Assembly (NCBI GenBank): GCA_023142915.1
Contig: JAGLIO010000063.1
Coordinates: 1-47,826 of the forward strand
Source: Candidatus Parcubacteria bacterium
GTDB taxonomy: Bacteria; Patescibacteriota; Patescibacteriia; Patescibacteriales; UBA12075
Direction of reading: 5' to 3'
Length of the DNA stretch: 47,826 nucleotides
The notes under the pieces are model-generated. The model saw nothing but the letters and a program-made list of their open reading frames with translations. It ran no database searches and was not told where the DNA came from. Shown piece by piece: positions 5,051 through 19,127 of the stretch. How positions within the stretch are numbered: position 1 is the first letter of the stretch; every line of letters begins with the position of its first letter. The translations under genes and the position numbers were made by a program.

Positions 5051-6379
5051 CTATTCTGTTAAAATTCCATAACCGGAATTATAAGCGCCAACAACGGTTC
5101 CTGCCGGCACTTTCATTTGCACATATATTTTCACCTGCCTGCCATCGCTTACGCCATTATCAATTCCGCTTATATCTACTCCTGTGTCAGGATAAATATT
5201 ATCGTCTAAAATATCAACCCAAGTAATTTCATTAACTGAAAAACGCATATTGCCTCCGGCGCCTAAAACTGCTGCTCCGCCCCATTCGTTAAATTTCATT
5301 TTTAACAAAGTTTCGCTCATATCCAAAACCGTAATATCAAACTCCCAGCTCCAGCCGTCCGCGTATTCGTCTTTGGCTTTTGCCGAAGTTTTTGTCATCA
5401 CTAACGAATCCACTGTAATCCCGCAAGGAGATGTTGTAAAAGCCGCGTCAGCGCTTGTGTCATTTTCCGAAGCATCAGCATTTTCAACATAAACTGAATA
5501 ATGATAGGTTGTATTACAGCTTAAACTATCTAAATTAATAATCGCTTCTGTGTTGGCAGTGACGCTAATTTCAGTTGTAACATTTCCATAAGTATCATCC
5601 AAACCGAAATTCACAACAGCTCCGGAATCTCCATTGGTTTGAAAAACAATATCCGCGCTTGTCTTTTCAATATTTTGTACCGGCTCCGCGTTTAACGCGA
5701 CTGTTAAAACAACGCTTCCCTCTAAACTGCTATCACCCTCTTCTTCACCATCTCCCTCTCCGCTTTCTGATGAATTTTGCGGTGTTGGCATATCGGTTTC
5801 AATAAAATCAACGCTATTGTCATCAGTATCTTCGCCGTCGGGTACTCTGACGATGCTATATGTTTCCGCCGGATTAGGCGCGGCCGCCAAACCTTCAAAA
5901 TCTACTGCCGAACCTATACCGACAAAGTCAACAATATTTTCATCTTCTTTGTTTTCTATATTAATATCATTATTTACCAAATAAACCGTATTGCCATTAG
6001 CCAGTGACAAACTTGATGATGTAATATCTGCTAATTCCAATAAAGACGTAGTAGCAAGGCTTCTTACAACCAAAAAATACCCACCTGCCGGAATTATTTC
6101 GCTAAGACTAATTTTAGATAGTGATGTCCCTGCCAGCCTTTGCAAAGACCAGCCGTCCAATAAAACATCTTCTGTCGTAGGATTGTATATTTCCACCCAA
6201 TCATCATTGTAGCCTCCACCGCCAACAATGCTATCTAAATGCGCTTCATTAATAACCAAATGATCGGCAATGCCGGCTTGCGCGTCTTCTGTTTTTTCCA
6301 AACACAAAAAACACGCCAAAATTAAAAAAGCCCCTGCGCTTAAACGCAAAGACACCTTGTTGTTCCTCCTCGTTTTCAT
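5051..6379 (-). CDS. Secreted lamin-tail-domain + FN3-like + C-terminal beta-sandwich protein (start moved to ATG at 6379)
   Basis: DHLVINE...DDWVEIYNPT..LDGWSL (LTD); LSCNTTYHYSV (FN3-like); ends MKVPAGTVVGAYNSGYGILTE; signal peptide begins MKTRRNNK. Confidence 0.8.
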   Translation of the reverse strand: MKTRRNNKVSLRLSAGAFLILACFLCLEKTEDAQAGIADHLVINEAHLDSIVGGGGYNDDWVEIYNPTTEDVLLDGWSLQRLAGTSLSKISLSEIIPAGGYFLVVRSLATTSLLELADITSSSLSLANGNTVYLVNNDINIENKEDENIVDFVGIGSAVDFEGLAAAPNPAETYSIVRVPDGEDTDDNSVDFIETDMPTPQNSSESGEGDGEEEGDSSLEGSVVLTVALNAEPVQNIEKTSADIVFQTNGDSGAVVNFGLDDTYGNVTTEISVTANTEAIINLDSLSCNTTYHYSVYVENADASENDTSADAAFTTSPCGITVDSLVMTKTSAKAKDEYADGWSWEFDITVLDMSETLLKMKFNEWGGAAVLGAGGNMRFSVNEITWVDILDDNIYPDTGVDISGIDNGVSDGRQVKIYVQMKVPAGTVVGAYNSGYGILTE

Positions 6380-6466
6380 TGTTTTTTTTTGTTGGCAAAA
6401 TAAAATAGGATTAAATCCCACAAAATATTTTGCCAAATTAATAATTATTAAAAAATTTACTAAAAA

Positions 6467-8217: not shown

Positions 8218-10248
8218 TTATTCGTCTTTGTTTTCGCTGTTGTTCACTGATTTTTCAATTATGTCATCTGTAATTTTTTCATTTGGGGGCTCTATGTTGT
8301 CGTCGCACGGTGGTAGAGACGCGCCGCGGCGCGTCTCTACGGTTGCGGTTGTTTCATCATCAACGATTATTTCATTATCTGTTGTTTCTTCATCGTCAGA
8401 CACAGAATTGGATGTAAAATCAAAATCAGATGGTGTGTCAGGCGCTGGCTCAGGCGTGACAATATCTATTGTGGTGTCTGTTGGATTTGGGTCGGGATTG
8501 GATGTGGGATTAGAGGCTGTATCAGGATTAGACGTGGAATCAGACGCTGGATTAGACGCTGGATTAGACGCTGGGTCAGACGCATTGCAATGCGTCTCTA
8601 CGGTTTCCTCGTATTCATCCAAATCCGCGTTTTCGTCTAATTCAATATTTTCTTCATTTAAATCTTCGTCTGCTATTTCGGCTTCTTCCGGATCTTCGCC
8701 GACAGACGCGCCGCGGCGCGTCTCTACGGTATTCTCACCAACCAATTCAACTGACAAATCTAATAATTCACCGGAAGCGTTGTTGTTTTTGTCTGCCTCA
8801 TTGTATAATCCGAGCTTTTTTAACATCTCTAATTCTTTTTCTGTTAATAATCCATAATCAATCGGCGGACAATAATCCTTATCTGACTCATCGCTATTTT
8901 GTACCATGAAATTTTCAGGACCGACAGCGACAACTTTTATTCTGGCATTGCCTGAGGGAACATAATATGTAAAATCTTCCAAAAATAACGGCAGACGAAA
9001 AAAATAATAACCAGTGTTTGTTGTTGTGGCAATAAAGCACCAGGTTCTCCCGCTATTATTTGAATAATACAAGCTAATAGTTAATTCACTGTCAGCGCTT
9101 TCGTTTGTACTGCTTGCGCTCCAATAAATTTCCTCAGTATGTCCGATATACCAAACCTCGCCGCCATTCGGACTCAAAACTTCAACTGTAGGCAAAGACA
9201 AATCTTTCCAATCAGAAACCGCGTCCGTATCATATCCGCTTGGAACGCGCCCCAGCATATTACCTTCGGATGTGGTTGCCACGGCAGGATTCCAAATATT
9301 ACTATTATAATTATCCCAATTTTCATTTGGCTTACCCCAATTCATCTGATCAATAATATTTCCATAATTATCTTTTAAAATAAGCATATCAGCATCATTA
9401 GCCATTTCAAACTGACCGCCCAAAGCATTAATTGTTTGGATGTTATCGGGAATTTCCCAATATTTCCAAGTGCTTAAATCATGTGAAATTAAAATATAAG
9501 CGCCAGCTTCAATCGTAGTGCTTGCGTTTATTTTCGCGCACGTGTTATGATTGCATATTTCCCATTTTTTTATGCTAATATCTTTATCAGTCGGATTAAA
9601 AAGCTCTATCCATTCATTTTTATCTTCCCTGCCGTGCGCGTCATCAACATCATAATAAACTTTATTAATCACTAAATAATCGGCAATATTCTCCCATATT
9701 CCGCTCGTAACAATATTGGAAATTCTTTCCAAATCTGAAAATCCCTTTTTGCCTGTTTGTTCTCCGTCAAAAATAAAATCAAATTCGCAAACCTTACTCC
9801 AATAACCGTAATCATTACTATTTAAAACTACTGTGAATTCTAAAATATCAAGCGTGCTTGTTGCCAAATAAAGATTATTTAAACTAAAATTAGCAAGAGA
9901 GCTTGTTGATAATAAAACCCCGTTTTTTATAACCTCCAAATCCAAAACTTGGCACAAGCCATCGTTACCATTCACAAAATCAATTCCAATATCATAACGC
10001 AAATCCATATCGCTATCATTAATAACTCTGATTTCACGATACGCGTTTATGTCGGGAACAAGTTCAGGTAAAAAATCATTATCCGATTCCAAAGAAAAAT
10101 CCAAAGAAGAAGTAAAAAAAGAGCTTATTTTTGTTGTTTCACTGTCGTTAAAAAAAGCCTTAGCCTGAATTACAGCCCAAAATCCCAGACAATTAAGTCC
10201 GGCTATCAATATTATTGCAATAAATTTTGATAGGGTTTTTTTATGCAT
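8218..10248 (-). CDS. SipW-type signal/TasA-like domain + lamin-tail domain + Ig-like domain + acidic low-complexity tail (likely start ATG 10248; track gives 10275)
   Basis: AKAFFNDSET..SSFFTSSLDF; YLVINKVYYD...EWIELFNPT; PTVEVLSPNGGEVW; D/E/S/N/P-rich C-terminus. Confidence 0.8.
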   Translation of the reverse strand: MHKKTLSKFIAIILIAGLNCLGFWAVIQAKAFFNDSETTKISSFFTSSLDFSLESDNDFLPELVPDINAYREIRVINDSDMDLRYDIGIDFVNGNDGLCQVLDLEVIKNGVLLSTSSLANFSLNNLYLATSTLDILEFTVVLNSNDYGYWSKVCEFDFIFDGEQTGKKGFSDLERISNIVTSGIWENIADYLVINKVYYDVDDAHGREDKNEWIELFNPTDKDISIKKWEICNHNTCAKINASTTIEAGAYILISHDLSTWKYWEIPDNIQTINALGGQFEMANDADMLILKDNYGNIIDQMNWGKPNENWDNYNSNIWNPAVATTSEGNMLGRVPSGYDTDAVSDWKDLSLPTVEVLSPNGGEVWYIGHTEEIYWSASSTNESADSELTISLYYSNNSGRTWCFIATTTNTGYYFFRLPLFLEDFTYYVPSGNARIKVVAVGPENFMVQNSDESDKDYCPPIDYGLLTEKELEMLKKLGLYNEADKNNNASGELLDLSVELVGENTVETRRGASVGEDPEEAEIADEDLNEENIELDENADLDEYEETVETHCNASDPASNPASNPASDSTSNPDTASNPTSNPDPNPTDTTIDIVTPEPAPDTPSDFDFTSNSVSDDEETTDNEIIVDDETTATVETRRGASLPPCDDNIEPPNEKITDDIIEKSVNNSENKDE
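8313..8340. repeat. REP-like palindrome, copy 2 (in frame, VETRRGASL)
   Basis: GTAGAGACGCGCCGCGGCGCGTCTCTAC. Confidence 0.92.
8490..8583. repeat. Imperfect 12-bp tandem repeat encoding ASNP/ASDP/TSNP
   Basis: AGACGCTGGATT units; protein ASDPASNPASNPASDSTSNPDTASNPTSNPDP. Confidence 0.8.
8578..8601. repeat. REP-like palindrome, copy 3, variant core (in frame, VETHCNAS)
   Basis: AGACGCATTGCAATGCGTCTCTAC: same arms, different self-complementary centre. Confidence 0.85.
8704..8727. repeat. REP-like palindrome, copy 4 (in frame, VETRRGASV)
   Basis: AGACGCGCCGCGGCGCGTCTCTAC. Confidence 0.9.
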
Positions 10249-10261
10249 AGCGCATATGTAT

Positions 10262-10540
10262 TTAATTAATCTCAACCTCCATCACCAAACTCTCAATCGG
10301 CAGACTCCCAACATTTTCAAATTCCAACTCCCCTTCCACTTCGTCGCCAGGCAGCCAATTTTCAGCTGTCCAAACCGCGTTAGCAGGTTCGTTTATGACT
10401 AAATCCAATGTCCCTGCCTCAAAAACATTATTTTCCGACACTTCCGTATCTTGAAAAAAAGCGGTTGTGTAGCTGATTGAAGCGATTACAGCGCTTACGG
10501 CGATTATTACTGTTAAACTTTTTATGATTTTGATGTTCAT
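10262..10540 (-). CDS. 92-aa SipW-dependent protein, N-terminal half of a TasA/camelysin-like domain only
   Basis: YTTAFFQDTEVSENNVFEAGTLDL...NWLPGDEVEGELEFENVGSLPI, then stops. Confidence 0.85.
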   Translation of the reverse strand: MNIKIIKSLTVIIAVSAVIASISYTTAFFQDTEVSENNVFEAGTLDLVINEPANAVWTAENWLPGDEVEGELEFENVGSLPIESLVMEVEIN

Positions 10541-10561
10541 ATATTTTTTATCTTTAAAAAA

Positions 10562-13500
10562 TTATTTAGCTAAAAATTTAAAATTAACATTAATACTTTT
10601 ACCTTGATATTCATTTCCGGCTGATTCTAAAAATTTGAATTTCATTTTTAGTTTTTTCTTTTGGGCTGGATTTAATACGCCGTCTGTTGTGTAATCTTCC
10701 AAATCCACTGATGATTCTTTTAGTTCGGAAAGAAGTAATGGGGCTATGCCATCGCCGGTGTCTGCTGTGACTGCGGTTAGAATGTCTTCTTCGCCGTATT
10801 CTAGTTTTGTGATGGCAATTTGGGTTTCTAGATTTGCGCCCATGTCAAGGGTGTTGCCTGTTGTGAATGTTTCTTCTGGTTCACCGTCGCCATCTTCATC
10901 TATCTCCACTGTAACACCTTCCCCACCTTGTGAGAGGGCTTGCCAGTCTATTGAGTATTGGTGTACTTCGTCGGGGGTTGTTGGAATATGGGCGGCATTG
11001 AAGGTGGTTTCTTCGCCGTTTATAACTGAAGTAACAGTGAGTCCATATATTCCATTGCTTGTTCCGACTATTTTTGGTGTATAGCCTTCTTCTGGAAATA
11101 ATATCAGCGCCCTCTCTGTCTCTTCGTCATACATAGAATTTGGAATATTTTCAACTATTTGACCATTAACTATACCGGTCACGTTCCCATCTACATCTTG
11201 TATTTGCATGTCGACAGGACTATGAACTTCATATTCAACATAATTAGTTAACACTTTTTCTAATTCTTTGACTAAATTATCCTGTGAGTTTGGATAAAAA
11301 TTCTTTAACCAACTTCCAACTCCAGACATATACGCCTTTTCGCCATTATATCTCCAAACAGCGCTAGCAACATCTCTTGCCTTATTAGCTGTTTCCGAAA
11401 AACCACTATCATAAGGTGCATTATTATCTAAGCCGTATTTAGTATTAAGATGATATAACATGTCTTTAAGATTTGCTTCTACACCCTGTCTAGTATTGGT
11501 ATATATTTTACAAGAGCATCCATCCACAATCTCTTCTTTACATGTTCCATAAGTCATACCGTCCGATTTGCTTGGATACTTATACTTATAAACAGATTTC
11601 CATCTATTATCTTCATATTCTTTCATGTTGCAATAGTAGCCATCTCTATAAAGAGTGTGATAAAGCTCGCCTGGCTGCCGAAAACAATCTTTTATAAAAT
11701 CTTCTGGCAACAAATAATCTGTAAGACCTACCTTGTCATATGGCATATACCCTGTTTCTATATCTTTTCCACAATAGCATCCGACTCCGCCACCTTTGCT
11801 TATGCTACTATTATCAGTTAATTGTCCTAATCCGCGACCACAATCAAAGGATATATTTGTGTTATCTCCTTCTGTCCATTCTTTTTTTACCATTGCCCTT
11901 AGCAACTCAAATGGAAATTTATGTTTATTCAAAGAACTACTGGAAATTTCTCGCATTATTTCATTTTCTTCTTCATCTTTGTAACGATAATCTATCATTT
12001 TGTTTTCCCAATCTATTTGTTGATTATCATTAAAACTCAAACCATCAGATTTCATCCAGCCGATTAAATCATCTGTTTTATCTTCCACTTCCCACCAGAT
12101 AGAGCCATCTGGTGATATTTCTAAATTGTTATGAGTATTTGTTGCTTTTAATATCCAACCATCTGGCACGACTTTTAGTCTTTCGTTAATGTCGTTTTCT
12201 CCTTTAAATTTTTCCGAATAAATTATTTGTGAACCAACCACTTTTACAAATTTTCCATTTGACGGCATATTGATTATAGTAACGTTTTCCTCTCTATTAT
12301 CTTTGCTATCATATGAACTTTGATTATCTGCATCTCCATCCGTATGACATCCAGGGTCGTCTTCATCTGTAAATCCATCCCCATCATTATCAACTTCATC
12401 ATTACACTGAGTCTTTGCAACAGTTGTGCAAGCGCTTATATCAATCAAACACACATCACTACAGCTCAAACTCCCACCATCAAAATCAAAAGACTCACAA
12501 TTTTGCCCGTCAAAATTAGTTCCATCACACTCTTCTGTGTCAGTTATTTCGCCATCACCGCAATACGAACCAATAATTGTAATAAGCTGACATTCATTTG
12601 AGCAGTATTCACAAGTTCCGTCATATCCTGCATGACAAATATATCCATTCTCGCCATTCCAATCACACTCCTCACCTTCATCTACAATATCATCTCCGCA
12701 AAAAGCATCAGTGCATTTGTAATTAAAACATCTATCATTCTGGCAATCACTATCTATTTCACAAGTATCGCCAATTGGACACTTATTGCAAATACTGCCT
12801 CCGCAATCATCGTCTGTCTCGTCTTGGTTTTTAATACCATCAGAACAAGTCTCTTCCACGGAACAACCTTCATCAACAACACCATCACAATCATTATCAA
12901 GATTATCATTACATATTTCAGACACCGGATTTACAGACCCGATACAATTACCCCAATTTCCTCCGATACATGTCTGTGTGCCATACGAACATAAACCAAC
13001 ATCTGTTTGACCGCATGATCTAACGGCGCCGTTTAAACAATCGCAATTTTCGTCAACAATATTATTACAATTGTTGTCAAATCCGTCACAATATTCAAAA
13101 GCGCCCAGGTGTATTGCCGAATCAGTATCATCGCAATCCCGTCCTAAAATAGTAAAATAAAAATAATTCGGATTGGTAGCTCCATAACATAAAGATACCG
13201 AGTTTTCAGGCAAAGAATATCCATCGCCGTCATAATCATAATAAAAATCACCAAGCCGCCATATACTGCTGTTGTTGTCATTACAATCAACATCTGAACA
13301 TACTCCATCGTTATCTGCATCAACACAAATAGGACCGCATATATTACTTGGGATATTTACAGTAACTGTATTTGAATTAACGTTACCACTCGGAAGTAAG
13401 GCTCTAATGTAGTAGCTATAACTATTTCCAGCGATTAAATTTAGGTTATTATAAAAAAAAGAATCTAAGGATGTATTTGTGTAAGGATAACCGTTGCGAT

Positions 13501-14221
13501 AAACCTCGTACTTTGTGGCGCCGGGATAATCATTCCAATCAAGCATAATTGCTGGAGCGTCGTAATATTCATGATCACAAACAGGAGGTTGATGAGATAA
13601 AAGAAGTTCTACTGGCTCATCTACTACTGTGACTTTGATACTCACGTCATCAAGTTTAAATGACGTAAACACAGTATCATCTAAAGTACTATGAAACTTA
13701 ATTTGAACACTGTTGCCATCTTTTCCGCTTAGATCAATTTGTTTTGTAGAAAGCTCATAGCAACTTCCACCGGCGCACGAATGTTTGTTTAAATTACTAA
13801 GGTTTCTGATTGGATATGATTCCCCTGTGGTTAAATTTTCTAACGTTACATCTAGTTCATCGTAAGGTTGCGTAGTCGCTTCGTCAGAGTAAATATTAAA
13901 ATAAAATGAAATCGTCGCTAACTCTGCCCCAGAAGGCACAGTCATTACTTGAGACAGAAGGTCTTGTTTTCCGTTTATTTCACCCAATACGGCATAATAT
14001 GATCCCCAGTGCGGGAATAAGCCTGACGTTATAACTGCGCCAGACAAATCCCAGTCACCATTATCACCACTTTCAAATCCACCATTTAAAACAATGTTTT
14101 GATCTGCAGCAAATGCTGTTTGTGTTATTAGCAGTGCTGAACAAGAAATAATAAATGAAAAACAAACCAAAAAAACACTAATTTTTAAACTTTTAAAGTT
14201 CCTCCTTTTTATTAAATTCAT
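10562..14221 (-). CDS. 1219-aa secreted multidomain protein: CBM-like, FN3, MopE-like/Cys-rich repeats, SH3-like, lytic transglycosylase-like, SPVD domain, C-terminal half TasA-like domain
   Basis: VLNGGFESG; DCDDTDSAIHLGAFEYCDGFDNNC; CGDGEITDTEECDG; IWWEVED..IGWMKS; PFELLRAMVKKE..GRGLGQ..AVWRYNG; HSPVDMQIQDVDG; ESAGNEYQGKSINVNFKF. Confidence 0.8.
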   Translation of the reverse strand: MNLIKRRNFKSLKISVFLVCFSFIISCSALLITQTAFAADQNIVLNGGFESGDNGDWDLSGAVITSGLFPHWGSYYAVLGEINGKQDLLSQVMTVPSGAELATISFYFNIYSDEATTQPYDELDVTLENLTTGESYPIRNLSNLNKHSCAGGSCYELSTKQIDLSGKDGNSVQIKFHSTLDDTVFTSFKLDDVSIKVTVVDEPVELLLSHQPPVCDHEYYDAPAIMLDWNDYPGATKYEVYRNGYPYTNTSLDSFFYNNLNLIAGNSYSYYIRALLPSGNVNSNTVTVNIPSNICGPICVDADNDGVCSDVDCNDNNSSIWRLGDFYYDYDGDGYSLPENSVSLCYGATNPNYFYFTILGRDCDDTDSAIHLGAFEYCDGFDNNCNNIVDENCDCLNGAVRSCGQTDVGLCSYGTQTCIGGNWGNCIGSVNPVSEICNDNLDNDCDGVVDEGCSVEETCSDGIKNQDETDDDCGGSICNKCPIGDTCEIDSDCQNDRCFNYKCTDAFCGDDIVDEGEECDWNGENGYICHAGYDGTCEYCSNECQLITIIGSYCGDGEITDTEECDGTNFDGQNCESFDFDGGSLSCSDVCLIDISACTTVAKTQCNDEVDNDGDGFTDEDDPGCHTDGDADNQSSYDSKDNREENVTIINMPSNGKFVKVVGSQIIYSEKFKGENDINERLKVVPDGWILKATNTHNNLEISPDGSIWWEVEDKTDDLIGWMKSDGLSFNDNQQIDWENKMIDYRYKDEEENEIMREISSSSLNKHKFPFELLRAMVKKEWTEGDNTNISFDCGRGLGQLTDNSSISKGGGVGCYCGKDIETGYMPYDKVGLTDYLLPEDFIKDCFRQPGELYHTLYRDGYYCNMKEYEDNRWKSVYKYKYPSKSDGMTYGTCKEEIVDGCSCKIYTNTRQGVEANLKDMLYHLNTKYGLDNNAPYDSGFSETANKARDVASAVWRYNGEKAYMSGVGSWLKNFYPNSQDNLVKELEKVLTNYVEYEVHSPVDMQIQDVDGNVTGIVNGQIVENIPNSMYDEETERALILFPEEGYTPKIVGTSNGIYGLTVTSVINGEETTFNAAHIPTTPDEVHQYSIDWQALSQGGEGVTVEIDEDGDGEPEETFTTGNTLDMGANLETQIAITKLEYGEEDILTAVTADTGDGIAPLLLSELKESSVDLEDYTTDGVLNPAQKKKLKMKFKFLESAGNEYQGKSINVNFKFLAK

Positions 14222-14306: not shown

Positions 14307-14334
14307 GTAGAGACGCGCCGCGGCGCGTCTCTAC
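14307..14334. repeat. REP-like palindrome, copy 5 (overlaps the sipW stop)
   Basis: GTAGAGACGCGCCGCGGCGCGTCTCTAC preceded by ACCGCGCGCGGT. Confidence 0.92.
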
Positions 14335-14843
14335 GGTGGTAATTTCCTAATCCTCCGAACCTCCACCCAAATCTTCTTCCCCTCATCCAAAATAATAATC
14401 AAAGCCGGGATGCCAATAATCAAAATAAAACCCCAAGGCTTTTTTGCAGTGGCAACGGCATATCCCACAAACGGAACGGAAAATAAAACTTTTCCAATAA
14501 TTTCATGCTCTTTTATTTTTTTCGCATCTTCGGAATTATTTGCGTCTCCTTTTGTAGTATATGTTTTTACGCCGTTATCATTTATTATTTCTTGTATTCT
14601 GTGCGTGGTTGGCGTTTTCCCTTTGCTTTCCGCTCCAAAAGTAATAACATCGCCTGCTTTATATTCCTTAACCGGTTTAATCACAACAATACTTCCGGTT
14701 TTAATTGCCGGCTGCATTGATCCTGATTGCACGATTTTTACTTTAAAATTACCTGTAATGGGAAACATTGTGGCAATCAATAAAATCGCGATAATGCCGA
14801 TGCAAACAAAAAATATATTGCTGGATATTTTAAATAACTTCAT
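14331..14843 (-). CDS. sipW: Signal peptidase I, SipW/ER (S26B) type
   Basis: N-terminal TM, VQSGSMQPAIKTG (Ser), PTTHRI (His), TKGDANN..D, C-terminal TM. Confidence 0.93.
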   Translation of the reverse strand: MKLFKISSNIFFVCIGIIAILLIATMFPITGNFKVKIVQSGSMQPAIKTGSIVVIKPVKEYKAGDVITFGAESKGKTPTTHRIQEIINDNGVKTYTTKGDANNSEDAKKIKEHEIIGKVLFSVPFVGYAVATAKKPWGFILIIGIPALIIILDEGKKIWVEVRRIRKLPP

Positions 14844-14861: not shown

Positions 14862-17105
14862 TTAATTTATAACAAAATTAATATCACCAGACATAACCGA
14901 TGCCCAATTTCCTTGATGAAAACTCTCTTCAGTCAAAACCATTTCTAAATCATAAGTTCCTGCTGTAAGACCCAGTCCATTGCATCCGCCTCTGCCAGGT
15001 TCCGGCTGTCCGCTTGATCTATATTCAGGGCAAAATAATACACTTGGATTAAATGAGTCAAGATTTTGAAGATAATCATTGCTTGTGCTTGAGCTGCATT
15101 CTTCGTAAAGAGTACCACAGTACAAAACATGATAACTTGAATCACTTGATAAAATAATATCATCAGCGTAAATATTTCCAGAGGCATCAGCGGTAAAATA
15201 ATCAAACACTAGATAGCCGACTATGCATTCCTTATTAGGATCAATATCTGATAATAATTTATTTGCCTCATACTGCGCGTCAGTTCTGTTTCTTGCGTTA
15301 GCATCTCCTACGCAAGTAGCGCCGCTAACACATGTCCATCTGCCTTTATAACCTACATATTCATTGGCTAAATCATCAGTGCCGCCGTTACAAACCGGCT
15401 TGCCTTCCAATTTCACTTGATAAGTGGCATAAGGTTTTAATCCTGAAGCAACCATGCTGCCTGTTAATTTTCCGCTTACAGGACCTGGATTAACATAAGT
15501 AAAAGCCGCGCTAGCATTGTAATAATCATGATAATAGCCATACTGAGTGCTTTCTGCCAAGTCGTTTAATTGGATTGTTTGAAAGCCAGTACAAACTCCG
15601 GCACAATCTAAATCAGTACAATCAACAAATCCATCACAATCATCGTCTAAACCGTTATCGCAAACCTCAGGAGCTTCCGGATTTACTAAAGGATTATTGT
15701 CGTTGCAATCCCTGCCTAATGTTGTTTCTGTGTATCCATCTGGAATTTCATCTCCACAACAAACTGCCATCATTCCATCATCCCTGCGATTTGCTCCATC
15801 CCCATAGTATCCGTCATCATCGCCGTCGTAATAATAAATGCCTACGCGCCAAGAATTAGGATTATTTATATCATTACAATCGCTATGTCCTAAAAATCCA
15901 TCTTCACCTTCACATCCGCTTGCCTCTGCGTAATATCCATCCCCGTCATTGTCCGTGCAATTCGGATTATCGCTTCCATTTTCATCTTCATAATCGCAGT
16001 TTAATTCTTCATTCGGCTTGTCTCCCTGTTTGTAATTTATTAGTCCTGGCCAGTTGTCAAAAATCCAATCTGAATTGTCTGGGCTCCAACTAACTAACTT
16101 ATGATTTAAAATATCATATTTAATACAAGGTAATAGCCAAATTTTAGCGCCGTTTGGATAATTTTCATCGTCAATATTCGGCAAATCAGTATTAATATTT
16201 TTATTATCAATTAAAGAAAGCTTTCCATCGCTATCCGGTGTTCCTTGATCAATTAAAAATCCTGTTTGTCCTGTCGTTCCGCTTCCTTCGCTGCTCCAAG
16301 GATCTGCATAATAAATTAAGCAATATTCCGTACTCGGATTAAGCCCAACGCCTAAAAAATCATAATTAAAAGTCGGCGCCATATAATCATATTTTAAAAT
16401 ACCCATTGTTTCGTCTGCTGTTGCAGTCCAAGTGTTATTGTTATATTTATTATCCATAAAAGATATCTGTTGTAACGGCTCTGGCGCGCTTACTTGACGC
16501 GCCTCAATTTCAATCACAAACGTCATTTTATCGCTTTGCGCCCAATTTTCAGTATCTTCACGCATATAATATCTTTGTATAACATTGACTGATTCGTCTG
16601 GTTGTAAAATTCCATCGCCATTGTTTTGTTCAAACGGCTGGTCTAGTTTTACCAAGCCCATATAATTGTCTTTAACATGGTTCATTGTAATTCCGGCTTC
16701 CTTAGAAATAGCCAACTTACCGTCAACATACATTTCATAAATAATCGCGGAATCAATATCGTTTTTCGGATTACCGCTATTATTTTCATCATACCATTCC
16801 TGCTCAGGTTCAATTATTCCATTGTCATCATACTCAACACATTTAATGATTTTCCATAATTTTAATGGGTTTAATCCTTCGTTTGTGATTTCAAATTCAA
16901 TTTCAAAATCTTTGCCAGGCTTAATGTCATCCCAAACAAAATTTCGCGACCATGGATTTTCACCGTCTATGGAAATATGAATAGTTCCCGCGGTAAATGT
17001 ATTGCCGGTTGAAATTTCCGTGTCGCTAAAAAATGATATTGTTCCTCCTGCTACCAACGCCGACATTGCGCCAATAACCAATATGCTTAATAAAATTTTT
17101 CGCAT
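14862..17105 (-). CDS. SipW-dependent TasA-like protein with extra domains and MopE-like Cys/Asp repeats
   Basis: GGTISFFSDTEISTGNTFTAGTIHI; IKPG; ENWAQSDKMTF; DCNDNNPLVNPEAPEVCDNGLDDDCDG. Confidence 0.88.
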   Translation of the reverse strand: MRKILLSILVIGAMSALVAGGTISFFSDTEISTGNTFTAGTIHISIDGENPWSRNFVWDDIKPGKDFEIEFEITNEGLNPLKLWKIIKCVEYDDNGIIEPEQEWYDENNSGNPKNDIDSAIIYEMYVDGKLAISKEAGITMNHVKDNYMGLVKLDQPFEQNNGDGILQPDESVNVIQRYYMREDTENWAQSDKMTFVIEIEARQVSAPEPLQQISFMDNKYNNNTWTATADETMGILKYDYMAPTFNYDFLGVGLNPSTEYCLIYYADPWSSEGSGTTGQTGFLIDQGTPDSDGKLSLIDNKNINTDLPNIDDENYPNGAKIWLLPCIKYDILNHKLVSWSPDNSDWIFDNWPGLINYKQGDKPNEELNCDYEDENGSDNPNCTDNDGDGYYAEASGCEGEDGFLGHSDCNDINNPNSWRVGIYYYDGDDDGYYGDGANRRDDGMMAVCCGDEIPDGYTETTLGRDCNDNNPLVNPEAPEVCDNGLDDDCDGFVDCTDLDCAGVCTGFQTIQLNDLAESTQYGYYHDYYNASAAFTYVNPGPVSGKLTGSMVASGLKPYATYQVKLEGKPVCNGGTDDLANEYVGYKGRWTCVSGATCVGDANARNRTDAQYEANKLLSDIDPNKECIVGYLVFDYFTADASGNIYADDIILSSDSSYHVLYCGTLYEECSSSTSNDYLQNLDSFNPSVLFCPEYRSSGQPEPGRGGCNGLGLTAGTYDLEMVLTEESFHQGNWASVMSGDINFVIN

Positions 17106-17891: not shown

Positions 17892-19127
17892 TTAGTTATA
17901 ATCATAATTTACCAATGTTCCGTCATCAACTAAATACTGGCTTGGATTCCAACCGCTCATTTTTTTATTAACCTCATCATAATCAGCAGCCAATACTAAC
18001 CATACCTTAGCTCCAACTCCATAATTAGCATCAGGAATTTCAGGCAAATCTATTCCCAAAACAGTACTGCCAGTAACGTCATTAATTTCACCACTACTAT
18101 CTGCAGTATAATTAGCAATCAAGGCTCCTGGATGATTTCCTGGATATGGATCTCCATAATAAATTAAACTGTAATCCGCATTATCAGTAAGACCTGTGGC
18201 AGTAAAACTATAATCAAATGTTGCGCCTTCAACCTTATAAGTCAAAGTACCTTTTGCACCATCGGAAAGGGCTGTCCATACATCACCAGAAGTATCCTTT
18301 TGAGTTAATTTTGCTATAGATGTGTTGTCTTCACTTACACCCGGCGCCGGAGCCGTCAACTGTCTAGCTTCCAATTGAACATCAAAATTCATAACATCGC
18401 CTTGCGCCCAATTTGTAATCATTGCTTCTCCCGAATCATCCCATGCCATCAAATGATAACTTTGGCTAACAACTAATTTTTCGCCTGGCGCTAATTTACC
18501 ATTCAATTTAACCCAAGTGTCAACAACATTGTCAATTCTAACCTGATCGTTTTCGTCAATAAGAACTGTCCATAATCTATTACCGTCTACATCCGTTTTT
18601 TCTAAATCAGGCTTTTTGTTTTCTTCAGGATTGGTAGTGTTATTTATTATAAACGGACAAGAATCTATTTCTGCTCGATTTACTGGAATTTTACAAATCG
18701 CCATATCATAAACCATAAATGCTGAAAGATTATCTCTTTCTGTATACTCATTATTATCACCATCCACACAAGTTCCATCTTCAAATATTCCTCCGCCTTC
18801 TGTGTATTCCGGTTCAGAAGAAGCTCCGCAATAGCTTGTGTCGCCAGGACCATTTTTAACATTTGTTAATTTTTTCCAAATATTGGCTGGATTTTCTCCA
18901 ACATTTTCAATAACAAAAGTCATATAACTAACTTGACATGGCTTGTCTAAAAAATTTGACCAACTGCTAGCCCACGGATTCTCCTCATCAACAGAAATAT
19001 CAATAGTCCCCGCGGTAAATGTATTTCCTACGCTTGTTTCAGTGTCGCTAAAAAAAGACGTAGTGGCTCCGACCGCAAGCGCTCCGACAGCGGCGATCAT
19101 GGCCAAACTCATAATAATTTTTTTCAT
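17892..19127 (-). CDS. SipW-dependent TasA-like protein, candidate major fibre subunit
   Basis: GATTSFFSDTETSVGNTFTAGTIDI; TNWAQGDVMNF; second domain YSLIYYGDP..GAKVWLV shared with 14862..17105. Confidence 0.88.
   Translation of the reverse strand: MKKIIMSLAMIAAVGALAVGATTSFFSDTETSVGNTFTAGTIDISVDEENPWASSWSNFLDKPCQVSYMTFVIENVGENPANIWKKLTNVKNGPGDTSYCGASSEPEYTEGGGIFEDGTCVDGDNNEYTERDNLSAFMVYDMAICKIPVNRAEIDSCPFIINNTTNPEENKKPDLEKTDVDGNRLWTVLIDENDQVRIDNVVDTWVKLNGKLAPGEKLVVSQSYHLMAWDDSGEAMITNWAQGDVMNFDVQLEARQLTAPAPGVSEDNTSIAKLTQKDTSGDVWTALSDGAKGTLTYKVEGATFDYSFTATGLTDNADYSLIYYGDPYPGNHPGALIANYTADSSGEINDVTGSTVLGIDLPEIPDANYGVGAKVWLVLAADYDEVNKKMSGWNPSQYLVDDGTLVNYDYN

Follow-up and report, generated by a model that had tools for sequence, protein, structure and literature searches.

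Here we describe a site in contig JAGLIO010000063.1 of a Candidatus Parcubacteria bacterium, at which a domain of the TasA family appears to be divided between two genes. The analysed stretch, called the window, is the entire 47.8-kb contig; the genome to which it belongs (G000) comprises 1.32 Mb in 99 contigs and is 93% complete. As judged from sequence comparison, the site encodes two pieces of a naturally split jelly-roll domain of the TasA/camelysin type. The C-terminal piece forms the end of a 1219-amino acid (aa) secreted cargo protein and is referred to as the tail, and the N-terminal piece is a separate 92-aa protein, referred to as the N-half. Coordinates of both genes and of their neighbours are collected in Table 1.

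The N-terminal part of the domain was recognized in the small protein by standard family models. Its residues 9–90 align with positions 6–86 of the 196 positions of PF12389 (E 2.9e-12, 47.3 bits, cut-off 22.5), and it passes the SipW-type signal model TIGR04088 marginally, with 19.6 bits at a cut-off of 19. This agrees with an earlier interpretation made from the letters alone (hereafter the sequence-only reading), which had taken the 92-aa open reading frame (ORF) for the N-terminal part of a TasA protein behind a SipW-type signal. The protein is not an orthologue of Bacillus subtilis TasA, since the equivalog model NF046066 gave 36.7 bits against a cut-off of 450; the BsaA subfamily model TIGR04090 likewise stayed below its cut-off (29.3 bits, cut-off 60). 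The protein is laid out as a SipW-type signal (residues ~1–27), a donor-strand and linker motif (~27–43) and the first jelly-roll strands (44–92), with a Glu-rich strand at residues 67–75.

Residues 1181–1219 of the cargo protein match positions 150–190 of the same family with 14 bits (E 0.046, cut-off 22.5), and NCBIfam holds no model of the tail. Homologous tails exceeded the Pfam cut-off, with 31.1 bits at locus L010, 26.5 bits in genome G062 and 22.8 bits in genome G061. The tail comprises a Lys-rich strand and the final strand of the fold. To find relatives, 1.84 billion representative proteins were searched with the last 95 residues of the cargo, and this search returned P0065, an intact TasA-like protein of 217 aa. 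By BLAST, residues 6–94 of P0065 align with the N-half (43% identity, E 4e-16) and residues 104–201 with the tail (37% identity, E 5e-11). The profile hidden Markov models (HMMs) of the two families gave the same picture, placing the N-half at residues 3–94 of P0065 (E 7.2e-22) and the tail at residues 115–205 (E 5.8e-21). From P0065 and the Pfam ranges it therefore follows that the coverage of N-half and tail is adjacent and non-overlapping, the outcome that the sequence-only reading had expected of an HMM alignment. Its further claim, that the last ~92 residues of the cargo are the missing remainder of the domain, thus gains evidence from P0065 and the homologous tails in addition to the weak Pfam match of the tail itself. 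In this gene pair the jelly-roll is not found whole in one chain, as positions 6–86 of PF12389 lie in one gene and positions 150–190 in the other, and the HMM detected no N-half-like region in any of the 21 tail bearers.

The AlphaFold model of P0065 (predicted local distance difference test, pLDDT, 71.4) shows strands at residues 38–101, a loop at 102–118 and strands at 119–201. A fold search with this model gave the B. subtilis TasA structures 5OF2 and 5OF1 as best matches (E 2.6e-6, template modelling score 0.42–0.47) and also the TasA fibre 8AUR. Given this order of strands and loop and these matches, the break would fall in a loop of a TasA-type jelly-roll. A sequence search of the Protein Data Bank (PDB) with P0065 gave no meaningful match (E 0.44 and worse), and the relation to TasA is seen only by Pfam and by fold. 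That the C-half gene comes first was confirmed by the ORF coordinates. The signal peptides that the sequence-only reading had assigned to both proteins fared unequally: the one on the small protein is recognized by TIGR04088, and the one on the giant protein was judged by eye only.

Relatives of the N-half were sought in a collection of 5.8 billion clusters. The 36 proteins found share 56–99% identity; 35 are 84–108 aa long and one is a 54-aa fragment. All 31 aligned relatives keep the position of the stop codon, ending within 3 residues of one point. The mean frequency of the top residue in these 31 sequences is 0.83 for residues 27–43 versus 0.79 for residues 44–92, and F29, D31, E33, N38, F40 and G43 are invariant within the donor and linker segment. 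In addition, T25 is present in 30 of the 31 and a small residue (S, A or G) at position 27 in all of them. Since T25 and the small residue at 27 are compatible with the -3/-1 rule of type I signal peptidases, we infer that a signal peptidase cuts the small protein near residue 27, at a conserved T-x-(S/A) site. Among 94 candidate proteins of 162–2000 aa, none was a close fused form of the N-half at E <= 0.001; this search was weak, as its word index also missed the 39%-identical 747-aa protein of the window.

The search of the representative proteins with the tail resulted in 27 matches: the window protein, 20 C-terminal tails, two intact TasA-like proteins with the tail-like stretch in their second half and four repeat proteins with many weak stretches. 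In the 20 tail-bearing representatives, which are 74–1517 aa long, the tail lies at most 5 residues from the C-terminus. The cargoes are of unrelated types, namely papain C1 and C39-like peptidase, RCC1 repeats, NosD beta-helix with a peptidoglycan-binding domain, and metallophosphoesterase with PKD. The N-half alignment was in turn used to scan genome and metagenome contigs, which yielded 17 loci. Eight loci, the window among them, have a full-length N-half gene, and in a ninth, L013, the copy is frameshifted. More than 1 kb of upstream sequence is available in seven loci, and in each of these the N-half gene is preceded by a tail-bearing frame. This tally leaves out L012 and L013 (318 and 27 bases upstream), the ordinary TasA-like proteins of L007, L008, L019 and L020 (28–35% identity) and the short fragments L017 and L018. 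According to the named records, Gottesmanbacteria and Nealsonbacteria genomes contain the pair and a Saccharibacteria genome contains a decayed copy; G061 and G062 carry one tail and one N-half each. The arrangement of a cargo with C-half followed by an N-half, which the sequence-only reading had proposed to seek in other genomes, thus recurs with different cargoes in other lineages of the Candidate Phyla Radiation (CPR), and the homologues are not single intact genes. The gene order was the same in all seven loci, but direct adjacency was not general, as a gene for a small polytopic membrane protein lies between the tail gene and the N-half gene in L004, L005 and L014. The spacing of the two genes also varies, from 21 bases in the window to ~240 bases in L009, and in L010 and L011 stop and start overlap out of frame.

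Both halves are under purifying selection. The ratio of nonsynonymous to synonymous substitution rates (dN/dS) was 0.07–0.30 in both halves wherever dS could be computed, for example with dN 0.051 and dS 0.389 between L010 and L011; dS was saturated in 7 of the 28 comparisons between N-halves and in 10 of the 15 between tails. The integrity of the junction was checked in four per-run assemblies, as the sequence-only reading had advised. Positions 9900–11300 were present in a single contig with 0 differences in all four. The four runs come from one study, a cold seep metagenome that is possibly the source of the window, and the assembler is independent of the window's whereas the samples are not. 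A stronger argument is that the same architecture recurs in other assemblies.

These data bear on two simple alternatives. Two decayed fragments or an assembly artefact, without joint function, would suit the rarity of the pair (see below) and the deletion-fused, out-of-frame copy in the lineage of L006, L015 and L016. The constant length and stop position of the small protein, the low dN/dS in both halves, the synteny and the unchanged junction all speak against this, and given the refutation by the conservation data we assign it next to no weight. The second alternative is read-through of the stop codon, which would fuse the ORFs into one circularly permuted domain. The cargo ORF and the N-half ORF of the window do share one frame, seven codons apart, although such in-frame spacing is expected by chance in one of three cases. 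A fusion would moreover bury the signal peptide internally, and the layouts listed above, with out-of-frame overlap, the longer spacer or an intervening gene, contradict it at the related loci; read-through is hardly credible. The decayed copy itself was located at L006:5618-6123, L015:2804-2998 and L016:2-193, in a Saccharibacteria-labelled genome and two metagenome contigs. There, a deletion fuses the first tail strand to the middle of the N-half. The small tail protein also exists in an intact form, the 203-aa P0049.

Next, we predicted the complex of the two halves, using as tail residues 26–120 of P0002 with a 21-row alignment and as mature N-half residues 27–92 with a 31-row alignment. 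The co-fold score was 0.68 in each of three runs versus 0.00 for the best of three controls, so that the co-folding check suggested by the sequence-only reading passed its controls, though split halves of a solved fold pass easily. In the calibration, which is only rough with custom alignments, 58 of 80 solved complexes attained the mark of 0.68, as did 2 of 110 mismatched pairs. At least 95% of the contacts are common to the runs, with a partner pLDDT of 68–69. In the predicted complex, residues 72–76 of the N-half run antiparallel to residues 88–92 of the tail, and residues 86–88 of the N-half pair with residues 115–118 and 73–75 of the tail. These contacts of the split pair correspond to P0065 strands 74–83 with 170–178 and 91–101 with 191–201. 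According to the prediction, both sheets would therefore mix strands from both chains.

When the register of the first contact is extended, E67, E69, E71, E73 and E75 of the N-half face K97, K95, K93, K91 and K89 of the tail (P0002 numbering for the tail). The glutamates are conserved in 31, 29, 30, 31 and 16 of the 31 N-halves, respectively. On the tail side, K95 and K97 are found in all 21 sequences, K91 in 19, K93 in 17 and K89 in 15. At the places of this ladder P0065 carries T/T/T/Y/N and E/A/V/T/L, and P0064 and the 747-aa protein of the window, as read from an alignment, have one basic residue of five each on the second strand. The Glu/Lys ladder thus appears specific to the split forms, as expected if the pieces must meet in trans. 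Residues 27–43 of the N-half lie outside the confident co-fold interface.

In line with the sequence-only reading, which had inferred co-folding after export and entry of the cargo into a TasA-like fibre, we propose the following mechanism. The cargo protein and the small protein would be exported separately, and the small protein would be trimmed by the neighbouring SipW-type peptidase. Outside the cell, the two unfolded pieces would combine into a single beta-sandwich, with strands of both in its sheets, held partly by the conserved Glu residues of the N-half (67–75) against the conserved Lys residues of the tail (89–97, P0002 numbering). The freed N-terminal ~17 residues could then enter another TasA-like unit as its donor strand, that unit being either another heterodimer or a one-piece TasA-domain protein of the locus. 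In this way, a non-covalent link would attach the cargo to a fibre or surface matrix. On the strength of the models, the halves probably co-fold after export. That the reconstituted unit joins a fibre through its N-terminal strand is possible but falls slightly short of an even chance, and for the whole chain, with co-folding of the halves and a cargo tied to a fibre by the N-terminal donor strand, we lean moderately in favour. The one-piece TasA-domain proteins of the locus carry their extensions behind the domain, presumably because the domain needs a processed N-terminus. With the domain split, a cargo could precede it even though a free processed N-terminus is required, and the tail would in effect be a dockerin-type tag.

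The main rival is a heterodimer without polymerization. Here, the small protein would complete and stabilize the C-terminal domain of the cargo as a secreted intermolecular chaperone or cap; no fibre would form, and the motif would be kept for the signal peptidase. The predicted co-fold indeed requires no third partner, the cargoes are mostly enzymes, TIGR04088 models signal and motif jointly, and in G062 the pair is the sole PF12389 match. Such a heterodimer does not, however, account for the conservation of residues 27–43 well beyond the cleavage site (N38, F40 and G43 in 31 of 31), nor for the match of these residues to the segment of donor strand and linker in TasA as described in PMC9674648. 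The window locus furthermore holds several more TasA-domain proteins and a SipW-type peptidase. We regard this rival as unlikely, if the most serious of those considered. A membrane anchor is a further option, in which an uncleaved signal peptide would hold the small protein and the cargo would dock by completion of the domain, being displayed on the cell surface. Conservation of the -3/-1 positions (T25 and the small residue at 27) argues against it, as does a SipW-type peptidase that adjoins in the window and in L010 and is present elsewhere in G061. The narrow margin by which TIGR04088 is passed, the fetched flanks of L004 and L005, which lack a SipW-type gene, and the polytopic membrane protein encoded between both genes in L004, L005 and L014 count in its favour, and we consider an anchor quite improbable.

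Several observations weigh against the proposed mechanism with its donor strand. The tail was found at E <= 1e-5 in none of 400 other genomes of the phylum, which leaves the window's genome alone among the 401 sampled. Among 60 relatives, three of them of the same genus, no convincing tail was found: weak matches in G024 (E 0.0077) and G050 (E 0.0091) were not confirmed by the tail HMM in L002 or L003 at E <= 1e-3 and were counted as no match. The pair is thus rare and therefore dispensable. The window's own tail stays below the Pfam cut-off, as given above. Because the two halves of a solved fold are prone to pass the co-fold through likeness to the solved TasA structures, the prediction shows that together the halves resemble a single TasA-type fold, and it does not show binding. 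Absence of a residue from the listed interface means uncertainty and does not show that the residue is free, and the conservation of residues 27–43 could serve signal-peptidase recognition alone. A mirror-tree comparison of N-half and tail distances over six pairs, which has little power, gave no signal of co-evolution (r = 0.16, p = 0.56). Finally, no peptidase of G062 passes the TIGR02228 cut-off (37.9 bits), and the PF12389 matches of this genome are limited to the pair. In G062, the pair therefore either polymerizes by itself or does not polymerize. The distribution has a second side, as the tails are 60–84% identical on unrelated cargo in distant CPR lineages. The patchy spread and the alike tails suggest a mobile module with cargo swapping.

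Table 1. Coordinates of the split-domain site and neighbouring features in the window
Feature	Position	Strand	Basis
Gene of the 1219-aa secreted cargo protein	10562..14221	-	ORF; signal-like N-terminus judged by eye
Tail, C-half of the TasA-like jelly-roll (final 92 residues of the cargo protein)	10565..10840	-	PF12389 150-190 (14 bits); P0065 alignment
Spacer of 21 bases, cargo stop codon (TAA) to N-half start codon	10541..10561	-	sequence
Gene of the 92-aa N-half precursor	10262..10540	-	PF12389 47.3 bits; TIGR04088 19.6 vs 19
Signal peptidase I of SipW/archaeal type (170 aa), immediately upstream of the cargo gene	14331..14843	-	TIGR02228 115.1 bits
747-aa protein with SipW-type signal, one-piece N-terminal TasA-like domain and long C-terminal extension	14862..17105	-	PF12389 39 bits
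411-aa protein with TasA-like N-terminus	17892..19127	-	PF12389 positions 2-50, 28.8 bits
Large secreted-looking protein with Lamin Tail Domain	8218-10275	-	PF00932, 52.7 bits
Large secreted-looking protein, 443 aa	6870-8201	-	ORF list
Large secreted-looking protein with Lamin Tail Domain	5051-6436	-	PF00932, 46 bits

In the ORF list of the window, every gene around the split-domain site lies on the minus strand. The signal peptidase exceeds the TIGR02228 cut-off of 51.85 and, with 113.7 bits, stays below the cut-off of 190 of the Bacillus SipW model NF046067. The 747-aa protein matches TIGR04088 with 28.3 bits and shares 39% identity with the N-half, and is a possible fibre subunit or acceptor. 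The 411-aa protein was matched by the N-half HMM (E 3.5e-11). In the 443-aa protein, a signal is followed by a region that looks TasA-like over the first ~130 residues, without the N-terminal donor motif; BLAST aligned it with the tail over a short stretch only (E 0.002), and PF12389 gave no match. FN3-like and DUF11 domains come next and then a hydrophobic C-terminal stretch and, after it, basic residues. This protein may be a membrane-anchored acceptor for the donor strand. In the larger of the two Lamin Tail Domain frames, at 8218-10275, the likely ATG lies near 10248 and is followed by a motif resembling a SipW-type N-terminus, which was matched by neither TIGR04088 nor the N-half HMM.

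The 1219-aa cargo protein consists of an NTTRR-F1-like stretch, Cys-rich MopE and acidic-disulfide repeats, an unassigned middle, an Ig-like spacer and the tail. The MopE-type match is to PF11617 (E 3.1e-11); NF033662 and NF033675 also match, both below their cut-offs. Residues 903–1218 show 51% identity with P0047, with which the protein has the Ig-like spacer in common. The middle of the cargo (window 11192-12304, minus strand; residues ~640–1010) shares 26% identity with P0047 over residues 682–802. An Atlas feature search with residues 640–1010 pointed to lysozyme-like, SLT and SH3 clusters with scores of 0.84–0.88, rated as leads only. A PDB sequence search with residues 658–1000 returned only beta-propeller and trefoil designs, on residues 14–63 of that stretch, and an AlphaFold model of residues 745–1000 from a two-row alignment (pLDDT 35.0) was of no use for fold assignment. 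Thus, neither the PDB sequence search nor the fold model confirmed the middle as a cell-wall hydrolase.

Related loci showed further variants. The cargo of L010 (L010:702-4949, plus strand) is a 1416-aa protein with its own SipW-type signal, a whole N-terminal TasA-like domain, NosD beta-helix repeats and the half-domain tail at the C-terminus; in its stop-to-stop frame the N-half HMM matches residues 17–129 and the tail HMM residues 144–216. Such a protein could link two fibre units. Upstream of it, at L010:2-268, lies the end of a SipW-like peptidase gene. Copies of the membrane-protein gene were found at L004:3683-4381, L005:5629-5970, L014:1149-1487, L012:1-312 and L011:66-803, in metallophosphoesterase-cargo loci, and are weakly alike (E about 1e-3). 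The membrane protein may be a third component; with this query, it was not found in the window's genome, which is 93% complete. In L006:2234-5995 and L011:277-1187 the cargo gene is apparently split in two. The long protein ends just short of the Cys-containing module found ahead of the tail in L004 and L005, and this module forms together with the tail a separate small protein with its own signal, encoded behind the membrane-protein gene.

The nearest known system is TasA/TapA/SipW of B. subtilis (5OF1, 5OF2, 8AUR). PF12389 is common to both halves, the model of the intact relative P0065 best matches the TasA fold, and the window locus likewise combines a SipW-type signal with a neighbouring SipW-type peptidase. 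In Bacillus biofilms, TasA-type fibres form the main protein scaffold; relatives exist across bacteria and archaea. To our knowledge, the described TasA-type subunits are single chains in every case. B. subtilis TasA is one polypeptide; in contrast, the domain considered here comes from two genes, C-half then N-half, cut in a loop, with the C-half behind a large variable cargo. In TasA, the next subunit is completed by a donor strand formed by residues 28–38, with residues 39–47 as linker (PMC9674648), and the N-terminal motif of the split form is conserved at the same place. TapA has been proposed as a strand donor to TasA (PMC9674648; PMC10151520). In B. cereus, heterofilaments of TasA and CalY with CapP are fibres of more than one TasA-family protein, all SipW-processed (PMC13082335). 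There, however, two complete paralogous subunits co-polymerize (PMC13082335), whereas here two incomplete pieces would first make one subunit.

In chaperone-usher pili, an incomplete beta-sandwich is likewise completed in trans by strands of another polypeptide (PMC9245690; PMC9674648). Chaperone-usher pilins miss one strand, whereas in the predicted contacts of the split pair the partner gives about half of the sandwich and contributes to both sheets; the split pair moreover involves no chaperone, usher or outer membrane. Cohesin-dockerin systems, which attach cellulosomal enzymes, resemble the tail in that a short conserved C-terminal module sits on many unrelated secreted enzymes and would fasten them to a scaffold. 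A dockerin is a complete fold that binds a complete fold, whereas the split pair would bind by completing one fold. No dockerin or cohesin Pfam match was found in seven window proteins at E <= 1, and the likeness is one of working principle only. Archaeal AbpA, AbpX and cannulae show donor-strand assembly of the TasA superfamily outside Bacillota (PMC9245690; 10.1101/2024.12.30.630787; 10.64898/2026.01.04.697558); unlike the split pair, the subunits described there are all single chains. Proteins with PF12389 were noted in Patescibacteria from counts of this family (PMC9245690), and Supplementary Data 1 of that paper lists PF12389 proteins, some from Patescibacteria, which may include these short proteins. 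Full-text searches on TasA, SipW, PF12389, camelysin and CPR found no description of a split TasA-type domain, and the word 'split' is absent from the available text of the superfamily papers (PMC9245690; 10.1101/2024.12.30.630787; 10.64898/2026.01.04.697558).

In its widest form, the finding would describe a portable two-piece fastener, in which a ~90-residue Lys-rich tail on any secreted protein is captured extracellularly by a ~65-residue Glu-rich partner that completes the fold, and the resulting unit polymerizes by donor-strand exchange. We regard this extension as rather doubtful. If true, it would allow a polymer of the pair alone, as in G062, or a branch point, as in L010, and thus enzyme-studded fibres; cargo swapping and spread between CPR lineages would then explain why tails are so alike in a family missing from 60 close relatives. 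A domain built from two separately exported polypeptides would, if true, be a new mode of assembly for the unit of an extracellular fibre. As a small natural pair that would reassemble extracellularly and has a Glu/Lys charge ladder, the two halves are also a candidate protein-tagging tool. CPR bacteria are ultra-small and live attached to other cells. For their biology, the split domain suggests a route by which hydrolases and adhesins may be displayed on surface fibres.

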